Source: Schmidtea polychroa
Lineage: Eukaryota
NCBI GenBank assembly: GCA_044892525.1
Contig: CM097885.1
Coordinates: forward strand, 682,001-746,000
Direction of reading: 5' to 3'
Length of the DNA stretch: 64,000 nucleotides
Shown: positions 12,274 through 54,737 of the stretch, in pieces
Numbering within the stretch: the first letter of the stretch is position 1
Layout: each line of letters opens with the position of its first letter
Notes under the pieces: generated by a model
Told to the model about the DNA's origin: nothing
The model's input: only the letters and a program-made list of their open reading frames with translations
Database searches by the model: none
Program-made: the position numbers and the translations under genes

Positions 12274-12281
12274 TTTAATAA

Positions 12282-13292: not shown

Positions 13293-13332
13293 TTATTAAT
13301 AATTTAAAATGGACGGAGTCCCCTGAGAGGAA

Positions 13333-14097: not shown

Positions 14098-14130
14098 TTC
14101 TTTAGTAGTAAATTCATATAGTAAAAATCC

Positions 14131-14595: not shown

Positions 14596-14617
14596 TTTGT
14601 ATTTTAAAACTTCGTAT

Positions 14618-15499: not shown

Positions 15500-15521
15500 T
15501 TTAATGGTATCAAAAATGGTA

Positions 15522-16100: not shown

Positions 16101-16116
16101 TTTATAATAAATAAAA

Positions 16117-16908
16117 ATGGATACTTGGAAACCAATTTTAAATAGACATAAGAGTAAATTCAATAATAAAGTATTTCCTGATAATTTTAGATTATTAATT
16201 GTTGGTTCTTCTGGATGTGGAAAGAATGTACTTGTTTTGAGAATGTTACTTGAAGATGATTTTTTAGATTATAATAATTTAATCTTTTATTCTACAACCA
16301 TAAATCAACCAGAATTACAACTTTTGAAATGTGGATTTGAAAATAAATTAACTAAAAAAGCAATAATTGATATTTTTAAAAATCAACATAGGTGTCCTGA
16401 AGAAGTTTTTCAACCTTGTGATATGGTTGATTGGTATAAGGAAAAGATTTTAGAATCAGATATTAGTAATAAAAATGATTATATTTGTGAAGAAGGGCAG
16501 GAGGCAATTCAAGTTTTATTCTCTAATAAACCTGAAGATGTTTTACATTGTGATTTACTTCCTAAAGATAAAAAGAATCTAGTTATATTTGATGATGTTG
16601 TTAATATGAAAAATCAAGAGATTCAAAAGAGTTACTTTACACGAGGTCGACATAATAATTGTAATGTTATTTATATATCTCAAACATATTATGCTTTAGA
16701 TAAAAATTCAATAAGAAATAATTCCAATTGTTTTATATTTTTTAAATTAGATCGCCGTGATAAGAATATGATTTATAATGATTTATTTTCAAATGTTGAA
16801 CCTGATAAGAATATGTTTGATATGTTTGTTGATAATCATTGGAAAGAAAAATATAATTATATTTATTTGGATAGAGAAGAAGCTGAAATATGGAAAAGTT
16901 TGTTTTAA
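16117..16908 (+). CDS. A32/FtsK-like genome packaging ATPase
   Basis: Walker A GSSGCGK, Walker B LVIFDD, RGRH arginine finger, YISQ, IRNNS. Confidence 0.95.
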   Translation: MDTWKPILNRHKSKFNNKVFPDNFRLLIVGSSGCGKNVLVLRMLLEDDFLDYNNLIFYSTTINQPELQLLKCGFENKLTKKAIIDIFKNQHRCPEEVFQPCDMVDWYKEKILESDISNKNDYICEEGQEAIQVLFSNKPEDVLHCDLLPKDKKNLVIFDDVVNMKNQEIQKSYFTRGRHNNCNVIYISQTYYALDKNSIRNNSNCFIFFKLDRRDKNMIYNDLFSNVEPDKNMFDMFVDNHWKEKYNYIYLDREEAEIWKSLF

Positions 16909-16923
16909 CTTGTTTTCTATAGT

Positions 16924-18333
16924 TCAGAAATCTGTTTTCTGTAGTTCATTATTATAAAATCTACCTAATATTTTTTCATTATTTAAATCAAAGATGCTAT
17001 ATGTTATTGGAGTTGTATAATTTATTTTATTTATAATAAAAATTTCATTTGTCCATTTTGCTGTGAATCCTTTTTCAAATTTATTTTTATATTTAAATAT
17101 TCTTACTCGGTCACCAATTTTAAACTTTGGTTTTTCAATAACATCATTTTCAATATTTACCACTTTAATGGTTTCAGGCTTCATGGAAGCATTTAAAGGT
17201 GTTAATTTTATAGAACTATGTACATCATTATTATATTCATTTACAATCTTTTGTAACAATTCATTGTTCCATTTTTGTTTTCCAATAGCAGTAAAATATT
17301 TCCACATTTTATTTTTTAATGTTCTATTTAATCTTTCAACTACGACTGCTTTTCCTTCGTTTTCTGTTGAATATAATTTAATATCATTTTCATTTAAAAA
17401 CTTTGTAAAAGCTTTGTTATAAAATTCTGTTCCTTTATCACACCATAAATATTTTGGGATTCTTTGATTTTCTTCAAATATATTTTCAAATGCTTCTGTA
17501 ATAGAATATCCTGTTTTATTTTCTAAACATCTTGCAAAAGCAAATCTTGTATATAAATCTATTACAGTTAAAATTATTTTATATTTTTCAGGGTCTGATG
17601 ATTTGGGCATAAAGACTAAATCTGCAGACCATGTTTGATCTTTTTCATGTACTTGAACTTTTAAATATTTTTTATTTTTTCTAAATTCATGGTGTAATTC
17701 CTTTGCATATTTTATTTCTGATTCTGTTGGGGTTTGTAAACTAGTCTTGGCTGTACTCTCGAGGGATCTTTCAATGTCTGCTTGTTCGATAATCTTTTTA
17801 TAAGCAACATCTTTTGCTTTCCTAGGAAGTCTTGCACCCATGGTGATCGGACTGTGTCCTAAGCCTATGAAAATCTTACCTTTCATTGCTAATTTAACTA
17901 GAGCTCTTTGAATCTTTTCTTGGGTTGATGGATTTTGGATACTATTTAAATCATGTATTAAATTCACATCTGCAACATGTCTATCTCTAAGATTTGTTGA
18001 ATTGTATGCAATGTCATGTTTTAAAGCTGCTTGATCAATTCTATTTATTGGTTCTTCTCCTTGTTTGGGATTATTATTTTCATCTAATCTAATATCTAAT
18101 CTTGTTCCTGGTCCGGTGTAGTTGTGTTTAAATAAATGTCTTTCACCTGGATATTTTTCTGTAGTAAAAGGTTTTAATATTGAAGATGTTGTTTTTGAAG
18201 ATTGCAAATCGCCTCCAGCTCGTGGAATTAGGTCACCTACTGTATGTTTTTTAGTTTTAAGATGGCTTGCTTTATGATGTCTTGTAACTTGACAATTACA
18301 AGTTTCACATCTCCAATATTTATTTAAAGACAT
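16924..18333 (-). CDS. INT: Retroviral-type (rve) integrase with N-terminal zinc finger and parvovirus-type PLA2 domain
   Basis: WSADL, LTVID, CDKGTEF, ERLNRTLK DDE core; GDRVRI..FEKG..W C-terminus; HNYTGPGT..IDQAALKHDIAY. Confidence 0.95.
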   Translation of the reverse strand: MSLNKYWRCETCNCQVTRHHKASHLKTKKHTVGDLIPRAGGDLQSSKTTSSILKPFTTEKYPGERHLFKHNYTGPGTRLDIRLDENNNPKQGEEPINRIDQAALKHDIAYNSTNLRDRHVADVNLIHDLNSIQNPSTQEKIQRALVKLAMKGKIFIGLGHSPITMGARLPRKAKDVAYKKIIEQADIERSLESTAKTSLQTPTESEIKYAKELHHEFRKNKKYLKVQVHEKDQTWSADLVFMPKSSDPEKYKIILTVIDLYTRFAFARCLENKTGYSITEAFENIFEENQRIPKYLWCDKGTEFYNKAFTKFLNENDIKLYSTENEGKAVVVERLNRTLKNKMWKYFTAIGKQKWNNELLQKIVNEYNNDVHSSIKLTPLNASMKPETIKVVNIENDVIEKPKFKIGDRVRIFKYKNKFEKGFTAKWTNEIFIINKINYTTPITYSIFDLNNEKILGRFYNNELQKTDF

Positions 18334-18371
18334 TTTAAAATGTTAAAATATCAGGGATTATATCAAGAATC

Positions 18372-19655
18372 TCACCTAACATTTTCAATAATTGAAATCT
18401 TTCCACCATATAATTTCATTTCTATTTTCTTTTCTTCTAATATTAATGTATATACTTTAGCTTTAAAATTAGAATCCTTTGTTACATGAAGTGTAACATC
18501 AACATTATTTATGGCTAGGCGATCATCTTGATCTGAAACATTTATACAAAATATAGAATATAAATTTTTGAAATCTTCTAAACTTAATTGCGGTTCAACT
18601 TTGAAATCATAACATGTTTCAATATAATTTAGATATGGGAATATGTTTTCATTATTTTCAATATTAAATTCCATTCTATTTATTGGATAATAAGAACTAT
18701 TTAATTGAATTTGGATTGTTTTTAAATTATCATCCCCAATCTTTTGAATAAATAGATTGTTATTTTTTTGGAAAGATGAATCTGTTTCTTTGAATCCAAT
18801 CAAGATATATCTTGGTCGGTATGCTAAATTTGCTACCTTTATAGAATATGTTGAACCCTCTGTCATACTAAATTCACTACAGATTATATTTAAATAATTT
18901 ACATTTATAGACTTGTTGGAATTTAATCTTTCAAGGAGTTTAATCTCAGAATGTGGGTTTAATGTCCATTCAGGTATATGTAATTCAAGTGTTGATAATT
19001 TTAATTTAGCTTTTGTATCTACAGCTCCATAGAACAATCTTTTATCACCTTCTACTCTATTACAGATGAATTCTATAAAAACATTATGAAGTCTACGATT
19101 ATAGTTTTGAAGGAATCCAAACAAGTGTTTTAATTCAAAATAACCTTCAAATTTTTTAGATTTATAAAGTTCAGCTCTTTTATAGTAACCATAATTTATA
19201 TCTAAACCATCTTTATCTAAATCTCCTTTATTAACATCAGGAATCCAGCCTGTTAATTCACCATATTCATTTTTATAATCACAACCAGTCAAAATAAAAT
19301 TTAACATTGTAGAATATACTCCCGGATGTAAAACAGTTTCAATTTCTGATGATCCTAGTTTTAATCTCATATTGGATAATAAATTTGGAAAGAAATTATT
19401 TTCTAGGGTTATATCTTTGTTTGCTTCAATTTCTAATTCGATTTTATAATATAATTTGGCATTACAAATATCTATAGGGTTTGATGTTTGAAGAGATTGA
19501 AAAACTATATCACCCCTACGATTTAAGTTTGCAATAGATCCTGAAGTTGGGGAGATTTTAAGTACATCGTTTTTCTTGATTTCATGAGTAAATTCTTTAT
19601 TATAATCAAGATTTAATTTATTTTTTTCTTGAATTTTAAGATTTATATTATTCAT
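18372..19655 (-). CDS. Major capsid protein (double jelly-roll, hexon-like)
   Basis: 427-aa beta-rich ORF with FELKHLFGF, LELHIP, RPRYILIGF, QLNSSYYP, YSIFCINVS motifs; Polinton context. Confidence 0.85.
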   Translation of the reverse strand: MNNINLKIQEKNKLNLDYNKEFTHEIKKNDVLKISPTSGSIANLNRRGDIVFQSLQTSNPIDICNAKLYYKIELEIEANKDITLENNFFPNLLSNMRLKLGSSEIETVLHPGVYSTMLNFILTGCDYKNEYGELTGWIPDVNKGDLDKDGLDINYGYYKRAELYKSKKFEGYFELKHLFGFLQNYNRRLHNVFIEFICNRVEGDKRLFYGAVDTKAKLKLSTLELHIPEWTLNPHSEIKLLERLNSNKSINVNYLNIICSEFSMTEGSTYSIKVANLAYRPRYILIGFKETDSSFQKNNNLFIQKIGDDNLKTIQIQLNSSYYPINRMEFNIENNENIFPYLNYIETCYDFKVEPQLSLEDFKNLYSIFCINVSDQDDRLAINNVDVTLHVTKDSNFKAKVYTLILEEKKIEMKLYGGKISIIENVR

Positions 19656-20655
19656 TTTTATAATAAAAAATTAAAAAATGACAAAAATCCAATCCTAGAT
19701 AGCGCAGTGAGAATAGACTGGCACAGTGGTTCAAATAGATAGCGGTTCAAATCCTAACTACGGTTAGTTTTTTTTCAACATAAAATAATATTAAAAATTT
19801 GAAAATAATAGTGTGGGTATCTTAGATTTATAAAGCAGTTGTATATTTTATTTATTTTATTTTTTTATTAATTAATTAATTTTTAAACATAAATATGAAA
19901 AAAAAAATATTGAAACGGGTGTGGTGGCGAACCGGTAATTATCACCACCAGTCTTTCGAACACCCCTGGATCGATTCTATAATGTGCACATTTATTTCTC
20001 AGTTGTTTTCGGACCTCTTTCGGATTCACTTTCGAATTCATTTGTACTTTCGAGCAGCACGCTTAAAACGCCGATGAAATCGTATTCGAGCGAGAAGCGA
20101 ATAATAAGGTGTGCTGCTATTATCGAATTGATTCTGATGTATGAGTCTGGCCAGCTTGTATATTGGAAGAGATTTGATAAACGAAAGAGGTTGAATAAAA
20201 AAATGATCCGGATCAAAAAAACTGTTGAGAGGACAGTGAAAAAAAAAAAAAATACCACTGTCCTCTCAGAGCAGTTTTACTATTTCATAAAATTTTTTAT
20301 TCTTTTTCAATTTTTTAAGTTTTATATAATTTAAAATCAATAATCTGATAAAGACCAACTCTAGAGTTTGATTACGATCAAAACAGTGCCTCAAGTAGTG
20401 CGTTTATATCCCTAACCAAAATAGCCCTCTAACTTTTTCTTTTCTATTCTCTTTATGTTTTTAGTTTGAAGCTTTTGAGTTTGAGGCTTTAAAGATTAAA
20501 ACAGTTAGGGGTATTAAGGGTGGTTGTTTTCAAAAAATATAGGGTTAAAATACTATAAAAGTATAAGTTTTAGGTTGTTTTTCTAATGGTTTAGGCGTAA
20601 TGGAGGTATGTTTTGTTGGGAGGGCTGTTTTGGTTAGGGATATAAACGCACTACT
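19634..20655 (-). repeat. Right terminal inverted repeat of the Polinton
   Basis: Reverse complement of the left TIR; ends TATAAACGCACTACT. Confidence 0.92.
19693..19775 (+). ncRNA. Putative Pol III type-2 small RNA in the right TIR
   Basis: A box TAGCGCAGTGA (19700-19710), B box GGTTCAAATCC (19744-19754), T8 run (19768-19775). Confidence 0.5.
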
Positions 20656-35420: not shown

Positions 35421-37595
35421 GATAAGATTTAAAGAATAATTTTTCATTTAACCTTTTTTTTTTAACCTTTTCATTTAACACCATTTTAGAATAATATTTT
35501 CTATCAAAGTTCTTATCTTGATTTATTTAATTTTTAACTTTTTAAAAAAATCATAAGCTAAGAAACCAGTTAACCTTATCAAGAACTTTAAATTTACTTG
35601 ATAATTTACAGAAATAATATACAAAATTTAATTTACAGAAATAATTTACAAAATAATAATACAGAAATTTATGATTAAGTTTGCTTTTATGAACAATCAA
35701 TATATATCATCTCGAGTTAGGTATTTGATAGGTGATATATTTGTAGTAAATAATAAGTTTATTATGTCTTTGTTACATAACTCGACTTTAGCGTCAAAAT
35801 GTGTTTTTAAAATAAATTTTAATTTTAAAATACCGCAATGTAATATATTAATTTTTTCCTACCCTTCCTTGATTTTGATTGGTTAGAATTTGTTCCTATA
35901 AACAATAATAATCTAAAAACAATAATAATCTATAAACAATAATCAATCATTAGTCACATTTAACAAATAATTAACCTTTAAAAATGAATTCTTTAATAGA
36001 AAACGTTATGAATGTTCGAGAAAAAATTCAGGAATTTGGTAAATTTTAATTTATTTATTAATTAATTTATTAATTAATTTAGATAATATTAATGAAGACA
36101 ATTTAAAATCGATTAAAGATTAAAGGAAATTTGAAAAGAAAAAGTAAACATAATTTTTAATTTATTAATTTAATTAATTAATAATTTAGGTAATACGAAT
36201 AAAGAGAAAAAATATGTCAATGTGTCAATAAATCGAAATGAAATTTTACAATGTAAGTATTGATTACTTTTTATAATTTAAAGGAAATTTAATATAATTT
36301 TTTATTTAAGTAAATGTTAATATTTTTAATTTAGTAAATTTTTATTTTTTAGTAAATAAAATTTGTAAAATAATAATAATTTGCAAATTTTTGCGTAAAC
36401 ATTTATTAAAATCTTTCATTTAAATTATATATTTTTATTAAATTTTTATTTTATAGGTATACTTTATCCAAATTATTGTTCATCGAAAAAACATGATAAT
36501 AATTGCCATTCTATAATGGAGAATTATTACACGAAAAAATATTATAATAAAACTTATTTTACGTATGTAAGACTAGTGACCCTGTAACATATAGCGTTTT
36601 TTATAATAAACATAAAAATCATTTAGATAGGTTTAATTTTAAAAAAGATAGTGTTTTTTAAAAGACCCTCAACTATAGAAAAAAATAATACAAATAAAAA
36701 AATTAAATTAGATACTTCTTCTTTTGAATCCTAGGTCGGATTAGATTTTGAATCCCAGGCTGGATTGTCTTTTGTTGAATTCCAGGTCGGATTGTCTTTT
36801 GTTGAATCCAATGATGGATTGGTTGTTGAATCCCAGGTCGGATTGCCTTTTGTTGAATCCCAGGTCGGATTGGTTGTTGAATCCAATGATGGATTATTCA
36901 CTTCCTTTGATTCTTGGGATGGATTAAATATAATACAAATAGGTGGAAATGTATCGACAGTACAAAGAGATTTAAGAGGTACTCATCAGATATTAAGTTT
37001 AAATACTAGCGACTTAAATATAAAAGAAATAATATTTCCTGAACAACCAATAATAAAATTACGAGATATTATTAACGAATTAGGATCCGTCAAAATTCAA
37101 TTCGGAATAACAATCGAATTTTAAAAAGACGGGTAAATAAAGGTTAATAATATCTCCAATTACGCAAAACCTTTAACTGCATCATTTTTTGATCAAGGCA
37201 TTAAGGAACTAAATGAGAAAATAACTAATATTACAGAGCTAGGAAGCAATTGGATTATAAAAAATATAACAGAAATCCACTTCACTATAACAAAAATAAG
37301 TAGGTTAAGTAGATTAAGTGTTATGAGTTTCATTGAAACACCTACTTATCTAAAAAATAAATATTGTTTAATTAATATAAGAAACACTGATGATTCATGT
37401 TTTTTATATAGCATTTTAGCTATTTTAAAATATGATGAAGTTAGTAATTATGCTAGAAATAGGTCATCGAGTTATAATTTATCTGACTTAGTATATAACC
37501 CGTTAGAATTACCTATGAAATTAAAAGACATTAGGAAATTTGAATCTAAAAATTCGGGTTTAAAAGTAGGTAGATAGTAGCCCACCGCAGCAATG

Positions 37596-37940
37596 GTCTA
37601 CACTAGAAAAACGTGGTAATTTAAGGTCTCAGGATATTTTCAATACAAATAGGTGGTCTACACTAAAAAAGCCAAGGATTTTTCAGACAATAGTGAGGTG
37701 AGTCTCCTTGGTCCTGAGAAATAGGTGGTCTACACTAAAAAACGTGGTAATTTAAGGTCTCGGGATATTTTCAATACAAAAAGCTGGTCTACACTAGAAA
37801 AGCATGGTAATTTAAGGTCTCAGGATATTTTCAATACAAAAAGCTGGTCTACACTAAAAAAGCCAAGGATTTTTCAGACTATAGTGAGGTGAGTCTCTTT
37901 GGTCCTGAGAAATAGGTGGTCTACACTAAAAAACGTGGTA
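37596..37940. repeat. Subterminal minisatellite (~50-70 bp units) of element 2, left
   Basis: Repeated GGTCTACACTAAAAAACGTGGTAATTTAAGGTCTCAGGATATTTTCAATACAAA; mirrored and extended at 51424-52275. Confidence 0.9.
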
Positions 37941-38479
37941 AATTTTTCAATTACAGTAAATTATGGTTCTAAAAATTAAAATTAAAGTAAATTATGGTCC
38001 TAAATTTTTCAAATTAAAGTAAATAATGGTTCTAAAAAATTAAATTACAGTAAATAATGGTCCAAAATTTTCCAATACAGTATATTATGGGTCTAAAAAT
38101 TAAATTACAGTAAATAATGGTTCTAAAAATAAAATTGAAGTAAATTTAGGTTCTAAAAATTAAATTACAGTAAATTAAGGTCCAAATTTTAAAATTAAGT
38201 AATCAATGGTAAAAAAAAAATTTTAAATAAGTAAATTAAAGTAATAATTTTTAAATAAGTAAATTAAAGTAATGTAATAAGTAAATTAAAGTAAGATTTT
38301 TAAATTTATTAACAAAAAGTTGAAATAATAGAAGGTGTTTGAGAATTGAAATTTTTTAATGAAAATTTTTATGAAATAATTTTTTAAGTTAATTTTATAA
38401 GTTAATTTTTAATGGAAATTTTTAAGATAATTTTTAATGGAAATTTTTATGAAATATTTTTCAAAGACAAATTTTAATA

Positions 38480-40150
38480 ATAATTCAACAACAAACCACC
38501 TACTAAGTACCAACAACCAGTAACTTACGAACATGTATTACCAACCAGATACCTACAACCAGATACCTACAACTAGTTACTAACAACTAGTTACATGATA
38601 CTAAGTAAATACAACCACTTTATAAGTACTAACAACCAAAAACAAGCAACCAACCAGGTACTAGATACCAAGTACTCACAACCGACAACAACCAAGTACT
38701 AAGCATTATTAACCAACATCAACCAGGTACTAAGCATTAATTACCAACTACTAAGTACCTACAACCAACTAGGTACCAGATACCAAGTACTAACAACCAG
38801 TTACCAACTACTAAGCATTAATTAACTACAACCAGCTAACAGCAACCGACAACAACCAAGTACTAACAACCAAAAACAAGCAACCAACTAGCTACCACCT
38901 ACCAAGTACCTACAACTAGATACTAACAACCAGTTACCAAGTACCTACAACCACCTACCCATTAACTAGCTACCAACTACTAAGTACCAACAACCAACTA
39001 GCTACCAGATACCTACAACTAGATACTAACAACTAGATACCAAGTACCTACAACCACCTATCCATTAACTAGCTACCAAGTACTAACAACTAGGTCTCAA
39101 ACAACTAAATACTAACAACCAGTTACCAACTACTAAGCATTAATTACCTACAACTAGTTACTAACAACTAGATACCAAGTACTTACAACCAACATCAACC
39201 AGGTACTAAGCATCATCAACTAACTACTAAGTACCTACAACCTACAACTAGATACTAACAACCAGTTATCTGATACCAAATACTTACAACTAGATACCAA
39301 GTACTATCAACCAAAAACAACCAACCAACTAGGTACTAGATACCAAGTACTAACAACCAACAACAACCAGGTACTAAGCATTATCAACCAACTAGAGTAC
39401 CTACTAAGTACCTACAACCAACTAACAACCACCTACCAAGTACTAACAACCAGTTACCAACTACTAAGCATTAATTACTAACAACCAGTTACCTGCTATC
39501 AAGTACTTACAACAAGATACCAAGTACTAAGCACTGTCAACTAGATACCAAACACTTAAAACTAGATACCACGTACTAACTAACTCTCAAACAACTAGTT
39601 ACTAACAATCAGTTACCTGCTACCAAGCACTCAACCGTCAACAACCAGTTACTAAGCATTATTAACCAACTACTAAGTACCTACAACCACCTACCCATTA
39701 ACTAGCTACAACCACCTAACAACCAATTACCTTCAACTAGTTACTAACAACTAGTTACCTGATAGCAACCAACTAGGTACCAGATACCAAGTACTAACAA
39801 CCGCCAACAACCAGATACCTACAATTAGTTACTAACAACCAAAAACAACCAACCAACCAGTTACCTGATACCAAGTACTTACAACCAGTTACCTTATACC
39901 AGATACCTACAACTAGTTACTAACAACTAGTTACCTGATAGCAACCAACTAGGTACCAGATACCAAGTACTAACAACCAGTTACCAACTACTAAGCATTA
40001 ATTACCTACAACTAGTTACTAACAACTAGATACCAAGTACATACAACCAACATCAACCAGATACTAAGCATTATCAACCAAGTACTAACAACCAAGTAAC
40101 TTACCAAGTACTAAGCACTGTCAACTAGATACCAAACACTTACAACCAGA
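38480..40150. repeat. A/C-rich mosaic satellite, left arm of element 2
   Basis: Shuffled words CAACTAG, TACCAAGTACTAACAACC, TACTAAGCATTA; mirrored at ~49400-51212. Confidence 0.92.
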
Positions 40151-40568
40151 TGACCACATGAAATTAATGGTTAAATATGAAAATAAGGATTATATTTAGT
40201 TGTTAAGTAAATAATGGTGTAAAATTAAGAAATAAAGAATAATTAGGTAAATTAAAGTAATAATTTTTAAAAAAGTAAATTAAGGTTCAAAATTTAAAAT
40301 TAAGTAATAAATGGTTCAAATTTTAAATTAAAGCTAAAGAAGTAAATTAAAGTAGTAATTTTTAAATAAGTAATGTAATAAGTAAATTAAACTAAGATTT
40401 TTAAATTTATTATCAAAAGATTGAATAACCACCAACTTTTTTGAGAAATGTAATTTTTAATGAAAATTTAAATGGAAATTTTTTTAAAGTTAATTTTAAA
40501 TGTAAAATTTTTTAAGTAAATTTTAATGAAATAATTTTTTAAGGTAATTTTGAATGAAAATTTTAATG

Positions 40569-40626
<58 letters not shown>

Positions 40627-41048
40627 AATAATTCAACAATCAGTTACCAACAATCGGTTACTGATTATTTTTTAACTAGGTGCTAACAAATACTTACAAC
40701 ATGATACCACGTACTAACTAACTCTCAAACAACCAGATACTTACAACTAACTACTAAATATTCTTCACTGTATTTTATGAAATGCTTTTTAAATTAATTT
40801 TTTATCTATCTTCAAAAATATATTTAATTACAATCATTAGAAAAACCTTTTCAAATTTAACAAAAAATGTTGATTTTCATCAATAAACCACAACTCATCA
40901 CCACGTGAAATTCAAAATAATTTAAATTACAATGAAAGACTAATGAATTCTAATTTACAAAACATTCTTCTTTTAAATGATAACTACTGACTTATTATTG
41001 CAAAGTAAAAATCGCATTCAATAAATACTTATTGTTGATCAGTTTTAT

Positions 41049-41153
41049 TATATATACTCTGAGTTTATCCGACAGGATGTTTTGACCCCCTAAGGGTACA
41101 GGTCGTAAGGGTACTGGTCGCAAGGGTACTGGTCGTAAAGGTACTAGTCGTAG
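41049..41153 (-). promoter_or_regulatory. Conserved cassette, copy 10
   Basis: Variant core with four 15-bp GGTCGTAAGGGTACT-type repeats; mirrored at 48621-48728. Confidence 0.5.
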
Positions 41154-44140
41154 GACCATTGGTAACACTTAACCACAACCTACCCATTAACTAGCTACTA
41201 AGTACTAACAACCAGTTACCTGATACCAACTACTAACAACCACCATCAAAACCCATCGAGAAATTAACAAATATCAACCTACAACTTTATAACAACAATC
41301 AATAAACAACACTGTACCAACTACCAAATACAAGATACCAACAACTTAGTACCAACAATCAACTAACAACACATAAAAATAATAGCAATTAAATACAAAA
41401 TACTCTTCATCACATACACTATCTTCTTATCAAAATCTAAAAAGTCAACCAACTACTTACAACCAACAACTATGTACTGACAAATTGATCTTTAAAAGAA
41501 AATACTCTTCACTTGAAAAATTAGATGGAAAATTAATTGAACTCAAGGCATCAATAACTTGATAAAAATTGATTAAATTATTGTAAAAAATTTAAATTAT
41601 TCGAAATAAATATCATAAAAATTTAATTAATGGACAAGAAAAAATTCTAATCATCCAATAAATAAAAAAAAATGCTGATCATTCAAGTTGAATCAACTAA
41701 GATAATAAATTAATAAGATAAGATATAGTAGATAATTGATTTAGATTGAATAAATTAATTGAAATAAAATTAATTTTAAGTATTATTTTTTTTAAGTATT
41801 ATTTTTTAAAAGTAATACATGTACTCAAATCTATTTACTAATTCCTCAATATATTCAAAAAATCAGTATGAATTCATTACAATCATCAATGTCATCAATC
41901 TACAATAAAAATAATTATCATTAAATTCCAAGAGAGACTAGATAACTAATGATAACATCTAATAAACCAGTAAATTCATTTAAATAATTGGTATATTCAA
42001 GCGAATTCTCTAATAAAATCATCTAAAAAGAATCATTTTCCCTGAAATATATCAATATTTAAAGATTGGTATCTTATCGATAAGTACTTGTTAAAGATCA
42101 TATATTCACCTCGAACTAACAAGATTCCTTAAAATCCCTCAAATGACTATATTTCTACCCTTAATTCGTATTATTACAAATATTTCACTAAAATCATCTA
42201 AAAAGCATCAAATTTCCCTGAAATAACTATATCTTTAAAGATTAGTATTTTATCGATAAATATCCTTAAAAGGTTATATATTTACCTCTGACTAATAAGA
42301 TTGCTTAAAATCCCTTTAAATGACTATAATTCTAACTTTAATTCCTATTATCACGAATATTTCCTTATAAAACATGTAAAATCATTAACCCTAAAGAATT
42401 TATAAAATCTAATGACAAAACCGGTTATAATAAAATTTTTGTTAATCACTGTAAATTTTTGTAAATCACTGTACTCGAAATTTAAAATAAATATAACTGA
42501 CTAGGTCCCATTGAAAGATTAAATTTATCCATTCAATAAAATATATTTCTTCAAATGATCATTTTACCGATATTCAACCGATTTAATTACTAATTAAAAT
42601 CAAGATTTCTTCCAATAAAGATCAATTTTATTTAGTTGTCGATGTTTTAAATCAATATTTCTCAACTTTTGTCGTTGTCCGTCTAAATAAAGATAAAAAT
42701 AATTTAAAGTTGATATCAATCCCATTTATCTGTAAAGTTTTCATCGTCAAAACCAAGTAAATCGATCATTATCCTTACGTAATAGAACATTGTTCTAAAA
42801 CATAAATCTAAATTAATATACAATGAATTAATCACAACCTAATAAAACGATATAATTATTATTGATACATAACTGACTAATTGACATTTCCCTTAAAACA
42901 ATGATATTTTACCAACATCACCATTAAAAAAATCATATAATCCCATCTTAACCCATGTCTCATTAAATTTAACCGACTATATTCCCATCTTAACCCATCC
43001 TTCATTAAATTCAATCGACCATATCTTCCTTACAATGATATATTCCCACCTTATCTGATCTCTCATTAAATCTAACCGACTATATCCCCTCAAAAGATCA
43101 TATATTCCCATCTTAAATTTAACCAACAATATCCCATCTTAACCGATCTCTCACCAAATATTTCTACCCCTTTAAACATCTAACCGAATATATCCTTCAA
43201 TTCTACCCACTTGAATCCTCCTTTAATTCAATTCAGTCTTAAAATCTTTAAAGAACTTCAAAAATATGACTTAATTGTTATAAACACCAAATATTCTTCC
43301 ATTGAAATAATTTAGTAGCTATGTAGTAAGAGTTCACTAAAAGATCAAAAATCAATATTTTCTACAAATATTTACCATCAAATACTGGAGATGATATATA
43401 TTGATTGATCATAATTCTTCATCGATTCAGCCAATCATTTTCAAGCAATAACAGCAAACTAAATTTCTTTATATCCTACAATAATTATCACGTAAATTTA
43501 AAGTCCCTGATAAAGTTAACTGGTTTCTTAGCTTATGTTTTTAAAGATCATCAATGTGTAAATATTCTTAGAAAATTATTGAAAAATTATTTATTAAAAT
43601 ATATTACAAAGTTATCATCAGAAATTTATTCTATCACTTAATTATTAACCTAATTGTCAATGAAATTAATTTTTATTTAAAAACTATTCAATAAAATACA
43701 ACTAATTATCAAGAAATTAATTAAATTTATCAATTAAATTTATCACCATTAAAACTTTTAATCAGTCAACATGAAATTCTTAGAAAATTATTCAATATCC
43801 TCATCAAAATTTATCCTACCACTTGATTATTGTACAAACTTTAATTATTAACCTCATTAAAAATAAATTTTTATTTAAAATTAAAAAACAAGTCAATAAA
43901 AATACATTCAATTATCAAGAAATTAATTAAATTTACTTTAGAATTAGCATTAAATTACAGATATTCACAAAAATTACGGAAATTCATGAAAATAATGGAA
44001 ATCCACAAAAATGATAGAAATTCATAAAAACGATAAAAATTCATAAAAATTATAGAAATTTACTTGAATAAAACCATCAACTCTAAAAATTATCAATGCC
44101 TTAAACATCAAATTTGCCTAAATTCAAATAAAAACATTAA

Positions 44141-44280
44141 ATACCTTTACGACTAATACCCTTGCGACATGTTGAATGTGAGTAGTACCCTTGTGAGCAA
44201 TACCCATAGGGGGACAGAATATTTTGTCGGATAAACTCAGAGTATATATTAATTAACTAATTTTTCATTGAATCAGTCAA
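44141..44280 (+). promoter_or_regulatory. Conserved cassette, copy 11, with TATA and TCAGT 30 nt downstream
   Basis: TATATA at 44243, TCAGT at 44273; partial mirror at 45590-45636. Confidence 0.55.
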
Positions 44281-44750
44281 ATTATCATTAATTTTGATAA
44301 AAATTCTAAAGTGGTAAGCAATGAAAGGAGAAATATTCTTTAAACTTTGATAAAATTAACAATGAAGGTGGTAAGAATCTTCATTAAAGTGAGGAAATTA
44401 CTCGATGATAAATTTAAATGGGTGAAAATAATTGGTAGAATAATTCATTAATGGATCATTGAATGGGCATAGATAAGATGAAGGTTGATAAGAATGGATG
44501 TATTGCAACTATTTTCTAAAAATTAACACTTTAATAAAAAAAACTTTTAAAACAAATATTTGTGGGGATGTTTTAAGTGAATAATTAATCAAAATCGGCG
44601 GAATATAAGTAGAAAATCGGGGTGGGGGTTATAGGCGAATAATTAATGGAAATTCGAGGGGATATAAGTGAATAATTAATGGAGAATCGGGGGGAATATA
44701 GGGATTAAATAGTAGAGAATAATAGTGAATATAAGTGAGGAGGATATATA

Positions 44751-45590
44751 ATTTAAGCTAGTTTATAACATAACAAGCCGTGACTAGTTTATTACATAAC
44801 AACCCGCGACTATTTTATTACATAACAAGCTGTGAATGGTATTTTATTGAGAATTATTGATTAGGTCTTTTTTTTTTTAATTTTTGAATAGGTACTTTAA
44901 TACCTTAATAATTTAAATGTTTTGATTTACACTAAATAATTTCTAAATCAATTACCCTTTTTAATCAAAATAAGATAACTATTCAAATAAATGACTTATA
45001 AAATACAATTAAAATTAAATTCTTTACACTAAATTTAAAAATATAAGTTTTATGAGTAAATGTTAATAAGAAATTAGTGTATTATCAGTTATAGACTTTT
45101 AAAACTTATTGATTAGATATTAAAAGTTACTCTTTTTTTTTCATAAGGTATTTTAATATTGTATTCTATTTATTATTAAATTTACTATTTTACACTAAAA
45201 TATTTAGAAAACAATCATCATAATATTAAATATGAAACTTCAATCAAAATAAGCTAATACTCGAATACTTACTTTGATCTTATAAAATACAATCAAAATT
45301 AAATACTTCACAAATTTTAAGTAAAGTTTTTTAAATTCTCAAATAAATGTTAACAAGATATTAATTTAATAATCATTATATACTTTTTAAACTTATTATT
45401 GGAATAAAACAATAGAATGATATTGAAAATATATACAATTTTAAAATATAATTAAAATTAAATTACATACTTTAAAAATTTAGTAAAATGTTGGTAAAAT
45501 ACCATTCACAGCTTGTTATGCAATAAAATAGTCGCGGGTTGTTATGTAATAAACTAGTCACGGCTTGTTATGTAATAAACTAGCTTAAAT
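44751..45590. mobile_element. MITE-like element with ~95-bp TIRs built from three ~26-bp repeats
   Basis: ATTTAAGCTAGTTTATAACATAACAAGCCGTGACTAG... versus ...CTAGTCACGGCTTGTTATGTAATAAACTAGCTTAAAT; AT-rich non-coding interior. Confidence 0.8.
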
Positions 45591-48500
45591 ACTACTCACA
45601 TTCAACATGTCGCAAGGGTATTAGTCGTAAAGGTATTTAATGTTTTTATTTGAATTTAGGCAAATTTGATGTTTAAGGCATTGATAATTTTTAGAGTTGA
45701 TGGTTTTATTCAAGTAAATTTCTATAATTTTTATGAATTTTTATCGTTTTTATGAATTTCTATCATTTTTGTGGATTTCCATTATTTTCATGAATTTCCG
45801 TAATTTTTGTGAATATCTGTAATTTAATGCTAATTCTAAGGTAAATTTAATTAATTTCTTGATAATTGAATGTATTTTTATTGACTTGTTTTTTAATTTT
45901 AAATAAAAATTTATTTTTAATGAGGTTAATAATTAAAGTTTGTACAATAATCAAGTGGTAGGATAAATTTTGATGAGGATATTGAATAATTTTCTAAGAA
46001 TTTCATGTTGACTGATTAAAGGTTTTAATGGTGATAAATTTAATTGATAAATTTAATTAATTTCTTGATAATTAGTTGTATTTTATTGAATAGTTTTTAA
46101 ATAAAAATTAATTTCATTGACAATTAGGTTAATAATTAAGTGATAGAATAAATTTCTGATGATAACTTTGTAATATATTTGAATAAATAATTTTTCAATA
46201 ATTTTCTAAGAATATTTACACATTGATGATCTTTAAAAACATAAGCTAAGAAACCAGTTAACTTTATCAGGGACTTTAAATTTACGTGATAATTATTGTA
46301 GGATATAAAGAAATTTAGTTTGCTGTTATTGCTTGAAAATGATTGGCTGAATCGATGAAGAATTATGATCAATCAATATATATCATCTCCAGTATTTGAT
46401 GGTAAATATTTGTAGAAAATATTGATTTTTGATCTTTTAGTGAACTCTTACTACATAGCTACTAAATTATTTCAATGGAAGAATATTTGGTGTTTATAAC
46501 AATTAAGTCATATTTTTGAAGTTCTTTAAAGATTTTAAGACTGAATTGAATTAAAGGAGGATTCAAGTGGGTAGAATTGAAGGATATATTCGGTTAGATG
46601 TTTAAAGGGGTAGAAATATTTGGTGAGAGATCGGTTAAGATGGGATATTGTTGGTTAAATTTAAGATGGGAATATATGATCTTTTGAGGGGATATAGTCG
46701 GTTAGATTTAATGAGAGATCAGATAAGGTGGGAATATCTCATTGTAAGGAAGATATGGTCGATTGAATTTAATGAAGGATGGGTTAAGATGGGAATATAG
46801 TCGGTTAAATTTAATGAGACATGGGTTAAGATGGGATTATATGATTTTTTTAATGGTGATGTTGGTAAAATATCATTGTTTTAAGGGAAATGTCAATTAG
46901 TCAGTTATGTATCAATAATAATTATATCGTTTTATTAGGTTGTGATTAATTCATTGTATATTAATTTAGATTTATGTTTTAGAACAATGTTCTATTACGT
47001 AAGGATAATGATCGATTTACTTGGTTTTGACGATGAAAACTTTACAGATAAATGGGATTGATATCAACTTTAAATTATTTTTATCTTTATTTAGACGGAC
47101 AACGACAAAAGTTGAGAAATATTGATTTAAAACATCGACAACTAAATAAAATTGATCTTTATTGGAAGAAATCTTGATTTTAATTAGTAATTAAATCGGT
47201 TGAATATCGGTAAAATGATCATTTGAAGAAATATATTTTATTGAATGGATAAATTTAATCTTTCAATGGGACCTAGTCAGTTATATTTATTTTAAATTTC
47301 GAGTACAGTGATTTACAAAAATTTACAGTGATTAACAAAAATTTTATTATAACCGGTTTTGTCATTAGATTTTATAAATTCTTTAGGGTTAATGATTTTA
47401 CATGTTTTATAAGGAAATATTCGTGATAATAGGAATTAAAGTTAGAATTATAGTCATTTAAAGGGATTTTAAGCAATCTTATTAGTCAGAGGTAAATATA
47501 TAACCTTTTAAGGATATTTATCGATAAAATACTAATCTTTAAAGATATAGTTATTTCAGGGAAATTTGATGCTTTTTAGATGATTTTAGTGAAATATTTG
47601 TAATAATACGAATTAAGGGTAGAAATATAGTCATTTGAGGGATTTTAAGGAATCTTGTTAGTTCGAGGTGAATATATGATCTTTAACAAGTACTTATCGA
47701 TAAGATACCAATCTTTAAATATTGATATATTTCAGGGAAAATGATTCTTTTTAGATGATTTTATTAGAGAATTCGCTTGAATATACCAATTATTTAAATG
47801 AATTTACTGGTTTATTAGATGTTATCATTAGTTATCTAGTCTCTCTTGGAATTTAATGATAATTATTTTTATTGTAGATTGATGACATTGATGATTGTAA
47901 TGAATTCATACTGATTTTTTGAATATATTGAGGAATTAGTAAATAGATTTGAGTACATGTATTACTTTTAAAAAATAATACTTAAAAAAAATAATACTTA
48001 AAATTAATTTTATTTCAATTAATTTATTCAATCTAAATCAATTATCTACTATATCTTATCTTATTAATTTATTATCTTAGTTGATTCAACTTGAATGATC
48101 AGCATTTTTTTTTATTTATTGGATGATTAGAATTTTTTCTTGTCCATTAATTAAATTTTTATGATATTTATTTCGAATAATTTAAATTTTTTACAATAAT
48201 TTAATCAATTTTTATCAAGTTATTGATGCCTTGAGTTCAATTAATTTTCCATCTAATTTTTCAAGTGAAGAGTATTTTCTTTTAAAGATCAATTTGTCAG
48301 TACATAGTTGTTGGTTGTAAGTAGTTGGTTGACTTTTTAGATTTTGATAAGAAGATAGTGTATGTGATGAAGACTATTTTGTATTTAATTGCTATTATTT
48401 TTATATGTTGTTAGTTGATTGTTGGTACTAAGTTGTTGGTATCTTGTATATGGTAGTTGGTACAGTGTTGTTTATTGATTGTTGTTATATAGTTGTAGGT

Positions 48501-48620
48501 TGATATTTGTTAATTTCTCGATGGGTTTTGATGGTGGTTGTTAGTAGTTGGTATCAGGTAACTGGTTGTTAGTACTTAGTAGCTAGTTAATGGGTAGGTT
48601 GTGGTTAAGTGTTACCAATG

Positions 48621-48728
48621 GTCCTACGACTAGTACCTTTACGACCAGTACCCTTGCGACCAGTACCCTTACGACCTGTACCCTTAGGGGGTCAAAACAT
48701 CCTGTCGGATAAACTCAGAGTATATATA
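48621..48728 (+). promoter_or_regulatory. Conserved cassette, mirror of copy 10
   Basis: Reverse complement of 41049-41153. Confidence 0.5.
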
Positions 48729-49150
48729 ATAAAACTGATCAACAATAAGTATTTATTGAATGCGATTTTTACTTTGCAATAATAAGTCAGTAGTTATCAT
48801 TTAAAAGAAGAATGTTTTGTAAATTAGAATTCATTAGTCTTTCATTGTAATTTAAATTATTTTGAATTTCACGTGGTGATGAGTTGTGGTTTATTGATGA
48901 AAATCAACATTTTTTGTTAAATTTGAAAAGGTTTTTCTAATGATTGTAATTAAATATATTTTTGAAGATAGATAAAAAATTAATTTAAAAAGCATTTCAT
49001 AAAATACAGTGAAGAATATTTAGTAGTTAGTTGTAAGTATCTGGTTGTTTGAGAGTTAGTTAGTACGTGGTATCATGTTGTAAGTATTTGTTAGCACCTA
49101 GTTAAAAAATAATCAGTAACCGATTGTTGGTAACTGATTGTTGAATTATT

Positions 49151-49184
<34 letters not shown>

Positions 49185-49399
49185 CATTAAAATTTTCATT
49201 CAAAATTACCTTAAAAAATTATTTCATTAAAATTTACTTAAAAAATTTTACATTTAAAATTAACTTAAAAAAAATTTCCATTTAAATTTTCATTAAAAAT
49301 TACATTTCTCAAAAAAGTTGGTGGTTATTCAATCTTTTGATAATAAATTTAAAAATCTTAGTTTAATTTACTTATTACATTACTTATTTAAAAATTATG

Positions 49400-51212
49400 T
49401 TGGTTGTATGTACTTGGTATCTAGTTGTTAGTAACTAGTTGTAGGTAATTAATGCTTAGTAGTTGGTAACTGGTTGTTAGTACTTGGTATCTGGTACCTA
49501 GTTGGTTGCTATCAGGTAACTAGTTGTTAGTAACTAGTTGTAGGTATCTGGTATAAGGTAACTGGTTGTAAGTACTTGGTATCAGGTAACTGGTTGGTTG
49601 GTTGTTTTTGGTTGTTAGTAACTAATTGTAGGTATCTGGTTGTTGGCGGTTGTTAGTACTTGGTATCTGGTACCTAGTTGGTTGCTATCAGGTAACTAGT
49701 TGTTAGTAACTAGTTGTAGGTATCTGGTATAAGGTAACTGGTTGTTAGTACTTGGTATCAGGTAACTGGTTGGTTGGTTGTTTTTGGTTGTTAGTAACTA
49801 ATTGTAGGTATCTGGTTGTTGGCGGTTGTTAGTACTTGGTATCTGGTACCTAGTTGGTTGCTATCAGGTAACTAGTTGTTAGTAACTAGTTGAAGGTAAT
49901 TGGTTGTTAGGTGGTTGTAGCTAGTTAATGGGTAGGTGGTTGTAGGTACTTAGTAGTTGGTTAATAATGCTTAGTAACTGGTTGTTGACGGTTGAGTGCT
50001 TGGTAGCAGGTAACTGATTGTTAGTAACTAGTTGTTTGAGAGTTAGTTAGTACGTGGTATCTAGTTGTAAGTGTTTGGTATCTAGTTGACAGTGCTTAGT
50101 ACTTGGTATCTTGTTGTAAGTACTTGATAGCAGGTAACTGGTTGTTAGTAATTAATGCTTAGTAGTTGGTAACTGGTTGTTAGTACTTGGTAGGTGGTTG
50201 TTAGTTGGTTGTAGGTACTTAGTAGGTACTCTAGTTGGTTGATAATGCTTAGTACCTGGTTGTTGTTGGTTGTTAGTACTTGGTATCTAGTACCTAGTTG
50301 GTTGGTTGTTTTTGGTTGATAGTACTTGGTATCTAGTTGTAAGTATTTGGTATCAGATAACTGGTTGTTAGTATCTAGTTGTAGGTTGTAGGTACTTAGT
50401 AGTTAGTTGATGATGCTTAGTACCTGGTTGATGTTGGTTGTAAGTACTTGGTATCTAGTACCTAGTTGGTTGGTTGTTAGTAACTAGTTGTAGGTTGTAG
50501 GTACTTAGTAGTTAGTTGATGATGCTTAGTACCTGGTTGATGTTGGTTGTAAGTACTTGGTATCTAGTTGTTAGTAACTAGTTGTAGGTAATTAATGCTT
50601 AGTAGTTGGTAACTGGTTGTGAGTATTTAGTTGTTTGAGACCTAGTTGTTAGTACTTGGTAGCTAGTTAATGGATAGGTGGTTGTAGGTACTTGGTATCT
50701 AGTTGTTAGTATCTAGTTGTAGGTATCTGGTAGCTAGTTGGTTGTTGGTACTTAGTAGTTGGTAGCTAGTTAATGGGTAGGTGGTTGTAGGTACTTGGTA
50801 ACTGGTTGTTAGTATCTAGTTGTAGGTACTTGGTAGGTGGTAGCTAGTTGGTTGCTTGTTTTTGGTTGTTAGTACTTGGTTGTTGTCGGTTGCTGTTAGC
50901 TGGTTGTAGTTAATTAATGCTTAGTAGTTGGTAACTGGTTGTTAGTACTTGGTATCTGGTACCTAGTTGGTTGTAGGTACTTAGTAGTTGGTAATTAATG
51001 CTTAGTACCTGGTTGATGTTGGTTAATAATGCTTAGTACTTGGTTGTTGTCGGTTGTGAGTACTTGGTATCTAGTACCTGGTTGGTTGCTTGTTTTTGGT
51101 TGTTAGTACTTGTTAAGTGGTTGTATTTACTTAGTATCATGTAACTAGTTGTTAGTAACTAGTTGTAGGTATCTGGTTGTAGGTATCTGGTTGGTAATAC
51201 ATGTTCGTAAGA
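49400..51212. repeat. G/T-rich mosaic satellite, right arm of element 2
   Basis: Reverse complement of 38480-40150 with internal duplications. Confidence 0.92.
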
Positions 51213-51423
51213 ACCTAAATTTACTTTAATTTAATTTTTAGAACCATTATTTACTGTAATTTAATTTTTAGACCCATAATTTACTGTATTGGAAAAATTT
51301 GGACCATTATTTACTGTAAATTAATTTTTTAGAACCATTATTTACTTTAATTTGAAAAATTTAGGACCATAATTTACTTTAATTTTAATTTTTAGAACCA
51401 TAATTTACTGTAATTGAAAAATT

Positions 51424-52275
51424 TACCACGTTTTTTAGTGTAGACCACCTATTTCTCAGGACCAAAGAGACTCACCTCACTATAGTCTGAAAAATCCTTG
51501 GCTTTTTTAGTGTAGACCAGCTTTTTGTATTGAAAATATCCTGAGACCTTAAATTACCATGCTTTTCTAGTGTAGACCAGCTTTTTGTATTGAAAATATC
51601 CCGAGACCTTAAATTACCACGTTTTTTAGTGTAGACCACCTATTTCTCAGGACCAAGGAGACTCACCTCACTATAGTCTGAAAAATCCTTGGCTTTTTTA
51701 GTGTAGACCACCTATTTGTATTGAAAATATCCTGAGACCTTAAATTACCATGCTTTTTTAGTGGTAGTCGGATTTTTGTATTGAAAATATCCTGAGACCT
51801 TAAATTACCACGTTTTTCTAGTGTAGACCACCTATTTCTCAGGACCAAGGAGACTCACCTCACTATAGTCTGAAAAATCCTTGGCTTTTTTATTGATAGT
51901 AGGATTTTTGTATAGAAAAAAATTTTTTGTATTGAAAATCCCAGGACCATCGAGACCCCTTCACTATAGCGTGAATAATCCATGCATTTTTATTGGTAGT
52001 CGGATTTTTGTATAGAAAATTTTTTTTGTATTGAAAATCCCAGGACCATCGTTTTTGTATAGAAAAATTTTTTTTGTATTGAAAATCCCAGGACCATCGA
52101 GACCTCCTCACTATAGTCTGAAAATTCCATGCTTTTTTAGTGAGACCGCCTTTTTGTATTGAAAAAATTTTATTTGTATTGAAAATCCCAGGACCATCGT
52201 TTTTGTATTGAAAAAATTTTTTTGTATTGAAAATCCCAGGACCATCGAGACCCCCTCACTATAGTCTGAAAAATT
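51424..52275. repeat. Subterminal minisatellite of element 2, right
   Basis: Repeated TTTTTGTATTGAAAATATCCTGAGACC / CCCAGGACCATCG units. Confidence 0.9.
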
Positions 52276-52454
52276 GCGTAATCAAAAGTTGCAGCAAAAA
52301 AATTACGGCACCAGAACCCCCCCCCCCGGGGGGGTCATTGCTGCGGTGGGCTACTATCTACCTACTTTTAATAATTAATGTTTTTTCATATGATAATAGC
52401 AAACAATTAACTGATAATTATGTATTAAAACATCCACATTTAGATATTATACAT

Positions 52455-54737
52455 CAGGGGTGCCCACTAATTTTTCTAGGAGTGCTACATTCACATCCAA
52501 AATGTGTATGCGATCTACTTTTTTAATACTTACATAATATTTACCTACAATGCAATAAATTCATCACAATAGAACAAATATATGTCAAAATATGGAAAAT
52601 TAAACTATGTAACTATTTATTATAAAAAAATGTAACTTAGGAAATCAAATTTAATGAAAATTATTGTTATATAGAACTTTTCGATGTTGATGCTCTACAT
52701 TGGGTTGAATCCACTAGATTTTTGTAGTTTTTGATATAAGTGCTAAGACAACTTCTTAGGCTGGATTCCAAATGGTCATCTGTTAATGTTAATAATGAGT
52801 TAATAATTTTCATATGTGAAAATGCAGACTCACATAAATAAGTTGATCCAAAAAATGATACTAAATTTTCGAAGCATTTTTTCAAGTTTGAATATTTATC
52901 CTCTGATAGATATTTCCATACATTTGGTTCGGAAGATCTTGATTTAATGAAGATATCATTTTGAAGTGTGATTATTTCCATTTCAAGTATAGGGATATCC
53001 ATTTTAAACAAAGTTGAGATTGAATCTGCAACAATTTCTGGCTTTATTATTGGATTAAACGGAAAGGACATAAATGCAGCCACAATTTCAAGTTTCTTGA
53101 AGTCTTGAAAACGTCTCTCGAACTCTAAAACCAAAATTTTGATCTGTTCCGCATATCTCGTAATATTAAAGTTGACATTTTCAGATTCTTTTAATTGTGA
53201 CAACATATTTGGAAAATAACTTAAATTTTTGTCTTTTATTTTGATAATATGTAAATGAAGCTTTTGTATAAATGCAATGATTGAACTTATCATATCGAAT
53301 ATCAATTTATCCTTACGATGTAAGTCGAGATTTAATTCATTCAGAATTGCAGTAATATCTACTAAAAATGCCAAATCCAAGAGCGAAACATCATCTTCCA
53401 ATTGCTTGAACTCATCACCTCTTGCGGCAAGGAACAACTTAATCTCAGAAAGAAAATCTCTAAATCTTTGTAAGAATTTTCCTCTACTTAGCCACCTTAC
53501 ATCTGAATGCATCAGTAATTCAGCAGGATCTTCGCTATTACTTTCTTCAATTTGTAATTTGAAAAGTCGTCTCTGAAGACTTCTTGCACGAATCGAGTTA
53601 GCAATTTTGAATGTTATTTCCATAATATCTCTCATATTCAGAATTTTAGCACACAAGGCTTGTTGATGAATAATACAGTGGTAGGAAAGAAAATCTGGGA
53701 ATTCACAATCATTCCTACAATATGCTATAAATCCGTTGTGACGCCCTGTCATAGCTGGTGCGCCATCTGTTGTTATTGATAAAAGCTTACAAATTTGGAG
53801 CTGAATGCTGTTGGCATAAGCTTTAAAATTCTGAAATATATCCTCACCACGAGTTTTACTTTTGAGTGGTATAATTGTTAATAATTCTTCCTTCGTAGAA
53901 AAATCTTTAAAGACCATTCGAATAAAAATTATAAGCTGCGAAATATCAGCCGCATTAGTTGATTCGTCTGCTTGCAATGAAAATGCAGTACAATTTCCTA
54001 TGTCTAACATTAACTGATATTTTAAATTGGTACTTATTTCTTGGACTCTCCGTGTAACTGTATTACGGGACAATTGCATATCAGTAATAGCAGAAATTAT
54101 ATCTGATTTATTTTTAAAATCACAAAATAATGATTATGCCGCTTCTAAAAATGCTTCTTTTACAATTACTCCATCACTAAAAGATTTCTTATTTTTTGCC
54201 AGAATGTAGCTTACTCGGAAAGATGCAGCTGTAGCTGACTTTGATTTGGATGCTAGCTTCGTAAAAAATGACTGTTGAAAAAAAATGCATGTTTTCAGTT
54301 CCATGATTTTAGACTTGCGTAGTTCACTGTCAAGTGGATAATCATCTGCAAAATTCTTATGAATTGTCTTGAAATGCCTTTCCAAATTCCCTCTTTTTGG
54401 TAATGAAATAGTAGCTTTACAAATTAAGCAACAACATTTACCTTTAATCATTACAAAAAAGTACTCCTTCTCCATTTCTTCGCTATAATGATAAGTCTTG
54501 GCTTTTCTATTTAGCATTTTTTATTTAGCATTTTTTTATTTAGCATTTTTAAACAAAATTAATTTAACAAAAAAGCTTAAGAAAATTTTTCACTTTGTTA
54601 ACCAAAAATTTAAGCATAAAACAGAAATTTTATATAAAATCTAAATTTATATAAAAAAAATTTTTTTTATGAAGATCTACTAAAAAATCCTTCGCGATCT
54701 ACCGGATAGATAGCGATCGAACTTATGGGCACACCTG
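52455..54737 (-). mobile_element. hAT DNA transposon, Buster/Charlie/SPIN group, 2283 bp
   Basis: TIRs CAGGGGTGCCCA / TGGGCACACCTG; 8-bp TSD TTATACAT at 52447-52454 and 54738-54745. Confidence 0.95.
52667..54517 (-). pseudogene. GTF2IRD2/Buster-like hAT transposase with one in-frame stop
   Basis: CLIC..NLERHF zinc finger, FSLQADES, TTDGAPAM, HCIIH, VRWLSRG, STYLCESAFS; the two ORFs are in the same frame separated by TAA at 54136-54134. Confidence 0.92.

Follow-up and report, generated by a model that had tools for sequence, protein, structure and literature searches.

Can the replication gene of a Polinton carry spliceosomal introns? This question is raised by the 64,000-nt stretch of Schmidtea polychroa DNA analysed here (the window), in which a sequence-only reading had described a gene for a protein-primed polymerase (pPolB) with three such introns. 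From the comparisons below, we consider it quite probable that the window holds dead Polinton-type copies whose pPolB gene likely had its own CCAAT/TATAAAC promoter and was spliced by the host, with three mini-exons supplying the start and a leader before exon 4.

The window is AT-rich eukaryotic DNA, with ~25% G+C (A+T ~75%). It contains one intact Polinton, hAT-type transposons and fragments of further pPolB genes. A second pPolB family is represented by two copies, A and B, in opposite orientation. The features discussed are the following.

7263-19670: intact Polinton, with genes for pPolB, integrase, A32 ATPase and double jelly-roll capsid.
35536-37563, then 52367-52454, then 54738-56185, plus strand: copy A, split by a 14.8-kb insertion and then by a hAT insertion.
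35877-35937, plus strand: predicted promoter of copy A, of putative function, with a reverse CCAAT (35877) and two CTATAAAC boxes (35896, 35930).
35984-36038, plus strand: exon 1 with the predicted start codon (first ATG after the box), 55 nt, ending in phase 1.
36039-36082, plus strand: intron 1, 44 nt, GTAAAT..TTTAG.
36083-36143, plus strand: exon 2, 61 nt, with a frame break near 36112-36125 in A and B alike.
36144-36189, plus strand: intron 2, 46 nt, GTAAAC..TTTAG.
36190-36252, plus strand: exon 3, 63 nt, symmetric with phase 1 at either end and without a stop in the pPolB frame; its last base opens the junction Cys codon.
36253-36456, plus strand: intron 3, 204 nt, GTAAGT..TATAG.
36311-36394, plus strand: candidate cassette exon in intron 3, 84 nt, or 60 or 42 nt if a later acceptor is used; symmetric and free of stops in A and B (in B within 61575-61372).
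36457-37563, plus strand: exon 4, first part, with a Cys/His-rich N-terminal domain, a VESQVG repeat linker, QIGG (36936) and a terminal-protein-like domain; several breaks.
37565-52366, no strand assigned: 14.8-kb insertion bounded by inverted ends, interrupting copy A; the corresponding site in copy B is empty.
52367-52454, plus strand: continuation of pPolB in copy A, 100% identical to copy B 60237-60149.
52455-54737, minus strand: hAT-type transposon inside copy A, with an 8-bp target duplication and a Spin-doc zinc finger match below the Pfam cut-off.
54738-56185, plus strand: continuation of pPolB in copy A, with exonuclease, endonuclease VII-like insert and start of the palm; broken end; PF03175 E 5.5e-6.
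62257 down to ~58700, minus strand: copy B.
61372-61917, minus strand: promoter, exons 1-3 and introns 1-3 of copy B (ATG 61844; introns 61789-61746, 61684-61639 and 61575-61372).
58711-61371, minus strand: exon 4 of copy B (pPolB body), which carries frameshifts, a single stop and, at 59295, an internal deletion.

The likeness between the copies starts at 35536 in A and 62257 in B, and the element ends of A and B were not found. Over 35930-36561 the copies are 99% identical (7 mismatches in 632 nt, five of these seven within introns). Their likeness is 99% in the 5' part (35930-36822) and 95% further on (36823-37563). The step at 36822/36823 suggests recombination or gene conversion between subfamilies. 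Both copies are dead. One further frameshift had been claimed, which understates the damage: copy A has breaks near 36561 and 36654, stops at 36732, 37122 and 37134, and two insertions, and copy B has a break near 61130, a shared stop at 60662, further frameshifts and a deletion of ~415 codons at 59295. In the window, neither integrase and A32 ATPase nor capsid and protease genes were found beside copies A and B.

Assignment to pPolB comes from a Pfam match of copy A to PF03175 (26.0 bits versus a cut-off of 25.8), from 57% identity of its 54738-56185 part, which has 3 stops, to residues 433-891 of P0059, and from 48% and 45% identity of the copy B pPolB body to P0001 and P0002, respectively. 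A third pPolB of the same clade is present as two tandem C-terminal pieces (3-483 and 1182-1932), ~70% identical to P0059. Our data point to an A/B element family that is very abundant and diverse. The integrase of the intact Polinton (16924-18342) has a phospholipase A2-like domain at its N-terminus (PF08398). The insertion at 37565-52366 is perhaps a non-autonomous Polinton or a foldback element. It forms a nested palindrome with ends starting AGTAGG and long tandem-repeat arms (3594-nt arms, 100% complementary), has no ORF of 100 codons before 51890, and its target duplication is ambiguous.

The coordinates, lengths and GT-AG ends given for the introns in the sequence-only reading proved right in copy A, and three matching introns were found in copy B from 61844 downwards, where the same structure had been predicted. 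Introns 1-3 have the GT...AG ends, donor consensus and T-rich 3' tract of U2-type introns. Their composition (90-96% A+T, 50-57% T) can be set against that of the exons (75-84% A+T, 26-34% T). A frame-blind intron caller returned exactly these three introns in each copy, and no introns in the control stretches, namely the reverse strand, 1800 nt of the copy B gene body and 4270 nt of the intact pPolB. Because the composition weights of the caller were derived from introns 1-3 themselves, this recall is partly circular, and it speaks for the boundaries and for specificity more than for independent discovery. Searched on both strands, the window matches a strict short-intron pattern, set post hoc, at six places, each of them within the 5' end of A or B; the third match in each copy is a 62-nt sub-segment of intron 3. 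A relaxed pattern gave 54 matches in the window. Single matches are thus common, and the signal lies in the cluster of three.

All three introns had been described as phase 1. This holds for intron 1 when counted from the ATG at 35984, and for introns 2 and 3 when counted back from pPolB, but no single frame spans them since exon 2 is 61 nt long. Removal restores a homologous frame for intron 3, through the junction Cys, and for six introns of relatives in conserved sequence. For introns 1 and 2, removal leaves exon 2 out of frame in both copies. Based on these sequence features, the three GT-AG segments are likely real spliceosomal-type introns of a Polinton-type pPolB gene, in its 5' coding part. 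The spliceosomal type and position claimed earlier hold up, but the count of three may be off, as intron 3 may consist of two introns around a cassette exon.

Further evidence comes from relatives. Viral contigs and a first metagenome scan yielded no relative. From 65 loci of a metagenome scan, the 10 closest that cover the 5' part were examined. Introns are present in five of these (four in L003, three in L005, four in L009, two in L010 and three in L011; 16 in total). Four loci (L001, L002, L008 and L012) have none, and L004 starts within the main exon. All 16 introns are short (40-53 nt), AT-rich, GT-AG and phase 1, and intron 3 of the window is ~4 times as long as the other 18 introns of the window and relatives. 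Intron 1 of the window resembles the first intron of L003 (z 4.1, rank 2 of 153 intron pairs). Removing the introns gives open frames of 1053 (L003), 1222 (L005), 1232 (L009), 892 (L010) and 1044 (L011) codons. The frame-blind caller found nine of the 16 in the 5' regions, eight of them in phase 1 at once; the others needed manual steps. The 16/16 result includes an AAG acceptor allowed in L005, an intron taken from a tblastn break in L003, a choice of donor in L011 where both were phase 1, and a one-base shift of an end in L010. The 16 introns are moreover not independent events, and 16/16 does not express a probability.

L003, L010 and L011 share two intron sites within conserved sequence; six of the 16 introns are found there, and the frame breaks unless they are excised. 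At the first shared site, spliced L003 and L011 read IIHRSGSSY, letter for letter as in the intron-free L008. In L009, positions 130-423 contain three 66-nt phase-1 exons, two of which are tandem duplicates, each with an IQTGG motif and similar introns. L005 and L008 are long contigs with an integrase, an A32 ATPase and a short TBP-like gene. In L005, pPolB is split by introns; the integrase, A32 ATPase, TBP-like and putative capsid ORFs are unbroken. The TBP-like genes (PF00352) lie at 10318-10779 in L005 and 11330-11806 in L008, and TATAAAC boxes occur on the minus strand near several gene starts. Candidate ORFs for a double jelly-roll capsid protein and an adenain-like protease (422-426 and 114-126 aa) in L005 and L008 had no Pfam match, and the contig of L008 also carries an ORF for a ubiquitin-conjugating (E2) enzyme (13477-13977; PF00179). 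An origin of the 19 introns as introners was considered and rejected. None of the 19 has exact terminal inverted repeats, the median pair z was 0.8, likeness was low except for tandem and same-site pairs, and they do not form a single repeat family.

Splicing at junction 3 yields TGT (Cys), whereas the unspliced DNA reads Gly. Cys stands in that column in all five aligned relatives (P0059, P0064, L001, L002 and L008), and in four of them the spacing from this Cys to the next equals that of the spliced window form. All five keep a Cys-x5/6-Cys...His...Cys motif 5' of the exon-4 Met. In P0059 and P0064, which are known from protein alone, a T-rich read-through (LIFFFS and FFFL) stands directly ahead of the Cys motif, as an intron acceptor would give. 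Together, the junction Cys and the in-frame removal of the relatives' introns support splicing by the host.

Fusion of exon 4 to pPolB, another element of the sequence-only reading, was borne out. Translated exon 4 is 45-46% identical to the N-termini of the full-length single-ORF proteins P0001 and P0002 (E 1e-12 and 2e-12). Where the frame of copy B breaks, that of copy A stays open, and most of the X1 contig depth there differs in length from B. By homology, exon 4 is the N-terminus of pPolB. Its Cys/His-rich domain is predicted to bind zinc. Pfam gave no match in the exon-4 N-terminal domain, and the ESM Atlas returned unnamed clusters with weak C2H2 leads for the matching part of P0064. 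The QIGG motif that closes the linker may resemble the adenain cleavage consensus.

Upstream of the introns, a TATAAAC box lies 34-48 nt 5' of the first ATG in L001, L002, L003, L008 and L011. The promoter stretch of copy A aligns with those of L003 and L011 better than all 500 shuffles, and it also aligns with the upstream DNA of the intact element. The idea that the CCAAT-like motif is special to intron-bearing members was rejected, because the upstream DNA of the intact element aligns as well. Splicing brings the ATG that follows the TATAAAC box into frame in L003 and L011. Exon 1 is weakly like the first exons of these two loci (shuffle p 0.04 each); beyond this value of p ~0.04 for exon 1, no significant protein homolog of exons 1-3 was found. 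As the DNA stands, exon 2 is 61 nt long in both A and B, which puts pPolB in another frame than the ATG at 35984. A 7-bp duplication (ATTAAAG twice, 36112-36125) had been proposed as the cause. The repeat is indeed there, but among the best 12 of 39 rows the other copies differ in length at this site by amounts other than 7 nt. Exons 1-2 would be coding in unbroken members of the family.

Alternatively, the introns might be real while exons 1-2 (or 1-3) remain untranslated, as a spliced leader that carries a short upstream ORF, and pPolB would start at the exon-4 Met (36516 in A, 61312 in B). This Met is invariant in all six aligned rows, P0001, P0002, P0005, P0014 and P0019 are called from it, as from a conserved alternative start, and the frame of exon 2 is broken in both copies. 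However, the longer-called relatives keep three Cys and one His 5' of the Met, the intron-free L001, L002 and L008 starting just before them, and this lowers the case for an untranslated leader. Moreover, the first of these Cys is made by junction 3, L003 and L011 use their first ATG in frame, and among the best 12 of 39 rows other copies vary in length at the exon-2 break. Hence, we consider a start at the exon-4 Met unlikely and retain translation from the first ATG in unbroken members.

In a quick maximum-likelihood tree of 52 rows, the element of the window falls in a 25-row clade (SH-aLRT 99) that mixes intron-bearing and intron-free members, and the intact element lies far outside, at 26% identity. 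The state of the introns requires two changes on this tree, and a single origin of the introns within the clade may fit it. The sequence-only reading had set the gene against the intact, intronless element of the window. That pPolB is indeed free of introns, but it belongs to a distant lineage (26% identity), and close relatives exist in both forms.

AlphaFold modelled the first 480 residues of L008, from a 24-row alignment, with a confident N-terminal domain (11-80), a disordered linker (86-202) and two folded domains. The domains named above for exon 4 follow this model of an intact relative. The window introns thus come before the Cys/His-rich domain, in the part of the protein that varies most. 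Foldseek gave no match for the L008 model at E <=0.001, and an OTU fold was not among the matches listed. The best fold matches for the L008 domain were Y-family polymerases (E 0.006-0.01), which is not significant at 0.001.

Contigs of four runs, none of them on record as RNA, gave no joints at introns 1-3 among the best 15 of 83. In contigs of X3 and X5, intron depth was about equal to exon depth, as DNA would give. The summed depth of these two runs over 58450-62250 was 10^5 to 10^6, which is not a copy number. In X1, which is guessed to be RNA, depth drops from 43 to values of 3-14 across exons 1-3 and introns 1-3; as it is high again 5' of the promoter, this drop was rejected as evidence of splicing. 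One X2 contig covers 14 nt at the 3' end of intron 3, and a loose poly(T) end coincides with a run of A near 61137; we take neither for the end of a transcript.

Could splicing act as a switch? A nested donor in intron 3 gives a 62-nt intron, and three in-frame acceptors then leave open cassettes of 84, 60 and 42 nt. In 3000 shuffles, at least 84 nt was reached in 0.07% of trials, a frequency (0.0007) that is post hoc. The candidate is 40-50% T, and its inclusion would change the junction Cys to Arg. From the sequence, the chance that this cassette exon was ever used is about one in three. On another reading, alternative use of a cassette in intron 3, or intron retention, would set whether a working polymerase is made, e.g., in germ line versus soma, which is compatible with real introns. 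The three nested acceptors are all in frame, the cassette is open in A and B and rarely matched by shuffles, and in L005 introns split pPolB but leave whole the ORFs for integrase, ATPase, TBP-like protein and putative capsid. Against such regulation, the cassette test was made post hoc, the T content is intron-like, and the number and position of introns vary among relatives, four of which have none. We therefore regard a regulated switch as doubtful, slightly more so than the untranslated leader. Least of all can the segments be chance GT/AG ends in AT-rich low-complexity DNA 5' of an intron-free gene, a highly improbable reading that fits the ~75% A+T of the window, the 54 relaxed matches and the lack of joints at these introns among the best 15 of 83, but not the clustering of three segments behind a promoter and ATG, the junction Cys, or six inserts of the same type that break conserved sequence of relatives unless removed.

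We thus return to a host-spliced pPolB gene. Host polymerase II would transcribe it from the promoter of the element, and the host spliceosome would remove the short AT-rich introns. In unbroken members, the mRNA would encode a leader (~57 codons), the predicted zinc domain, the disordered repeat linker, the terminal protein, an OTU-like protease and the polymerase. The introns would be an inherited gene structure, gained within the clade and accepted chiefly in the variable N-terminal part. With phase 1 throughout, the small exons are symmetric, and the frame survives their duplication, as seen in L009, or their skipping. Such symmetry can account for the introns of the leader, though not for those at the two conserved sites. 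A special regulatory role is not needed to explain the introns. More tentatively, and with only a modest chance of being right, the clade may have gained introns in pPolB by a process restricted to phase 1, its other genes being intron-free, and may use them, symmetric mini-exons and the cassette letting host splicing time the production of a working polymerase. If so, these elements would be a natural system in which to follow how a virus-like genome gains introns, and Polinton mobilisation would have a splicing switch.

These results have several implications. The absence of introns from core genes is one of the marks by which intact Polintons are recognised, and protein prediction in them takes single ORFs. 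In the present gene, single-ORF prediction cuts off the true N-terminus of pPolB, and database relatives open either with read-through of an intron or at an internal Met. Should the introns prove real, pPolB could not be expressed without the host spliceosome; replication would then be tied to the nucleus, and transfer across hosts with differing intron rules might be limited. Sister elements with many introns and with none, and phase 1 in all 16 introns of relatives, also provide a testable case of recent intron gain, a long-standing question.

How does this gene compare with known systems? In adenoviruses, a distant short exon gives the polymerase its first residues. The pTP and AdPol of the E2B region are expressed by host splicing (PMC9499273). 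Both cases thus involve a protein-primed polymerase of the same virus phylum made via host splicing. In E2B, however, a long shared transcript is alternatively spliced, whereas the introns described here are 44-204 nt long, host-like, gene-specific and patchy within one clade.

Polinton/Maverick elements (eupolintoviruses, Alpha-type adintoviruses) have a pPolB with terminal-protein and vOTU domains (PMC11161782; PMC8502044), and a PAD-like terminal protein with likeness to the Y-family polymerase fold has been reported (PMC11161782). The PF03175 match of copy A, the Y-family-like domain of L008 (not significant) and the integrase and A32 ATPase of the relatives agree with this type. Unlike it, the pPolB described here is interrupted by introns in phase 1 and bears an additional Cys/His-rich domain at its N-terminus, and A and B have no capsid or integrase beside them.

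Intact vertebrate Mavericks have no introns in core genes (PMC8097293), a nematode Maverick has intronless core genes and captured host cargo genes with introns (bioRxiv 2022.07.12.499685), eupolintoviral elements of dinoflagellates contain introner insertions (PMC12166617), and group I introns are the subject of PMC12220804. In the full-text literature covered, which also takes in PMC10748475 and PMC11244446, we found no report of spliceosomal introns in a Polinton's own pPolB, although supplementary or Repbase annotations could mention them. The nematode element likewise has introns inside a Maverick, but in captured host genes, whereas here they interrupt the element's own replication gene. 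The dinoflagellate elements share spliceosomal introns in a Polinton-like context, but those are repeated, transposon-derived introns. Intronless core genes, intron-bearing cargo and introners are known, and spliceosomal introns in a Polinton's own replication gene are likely new.
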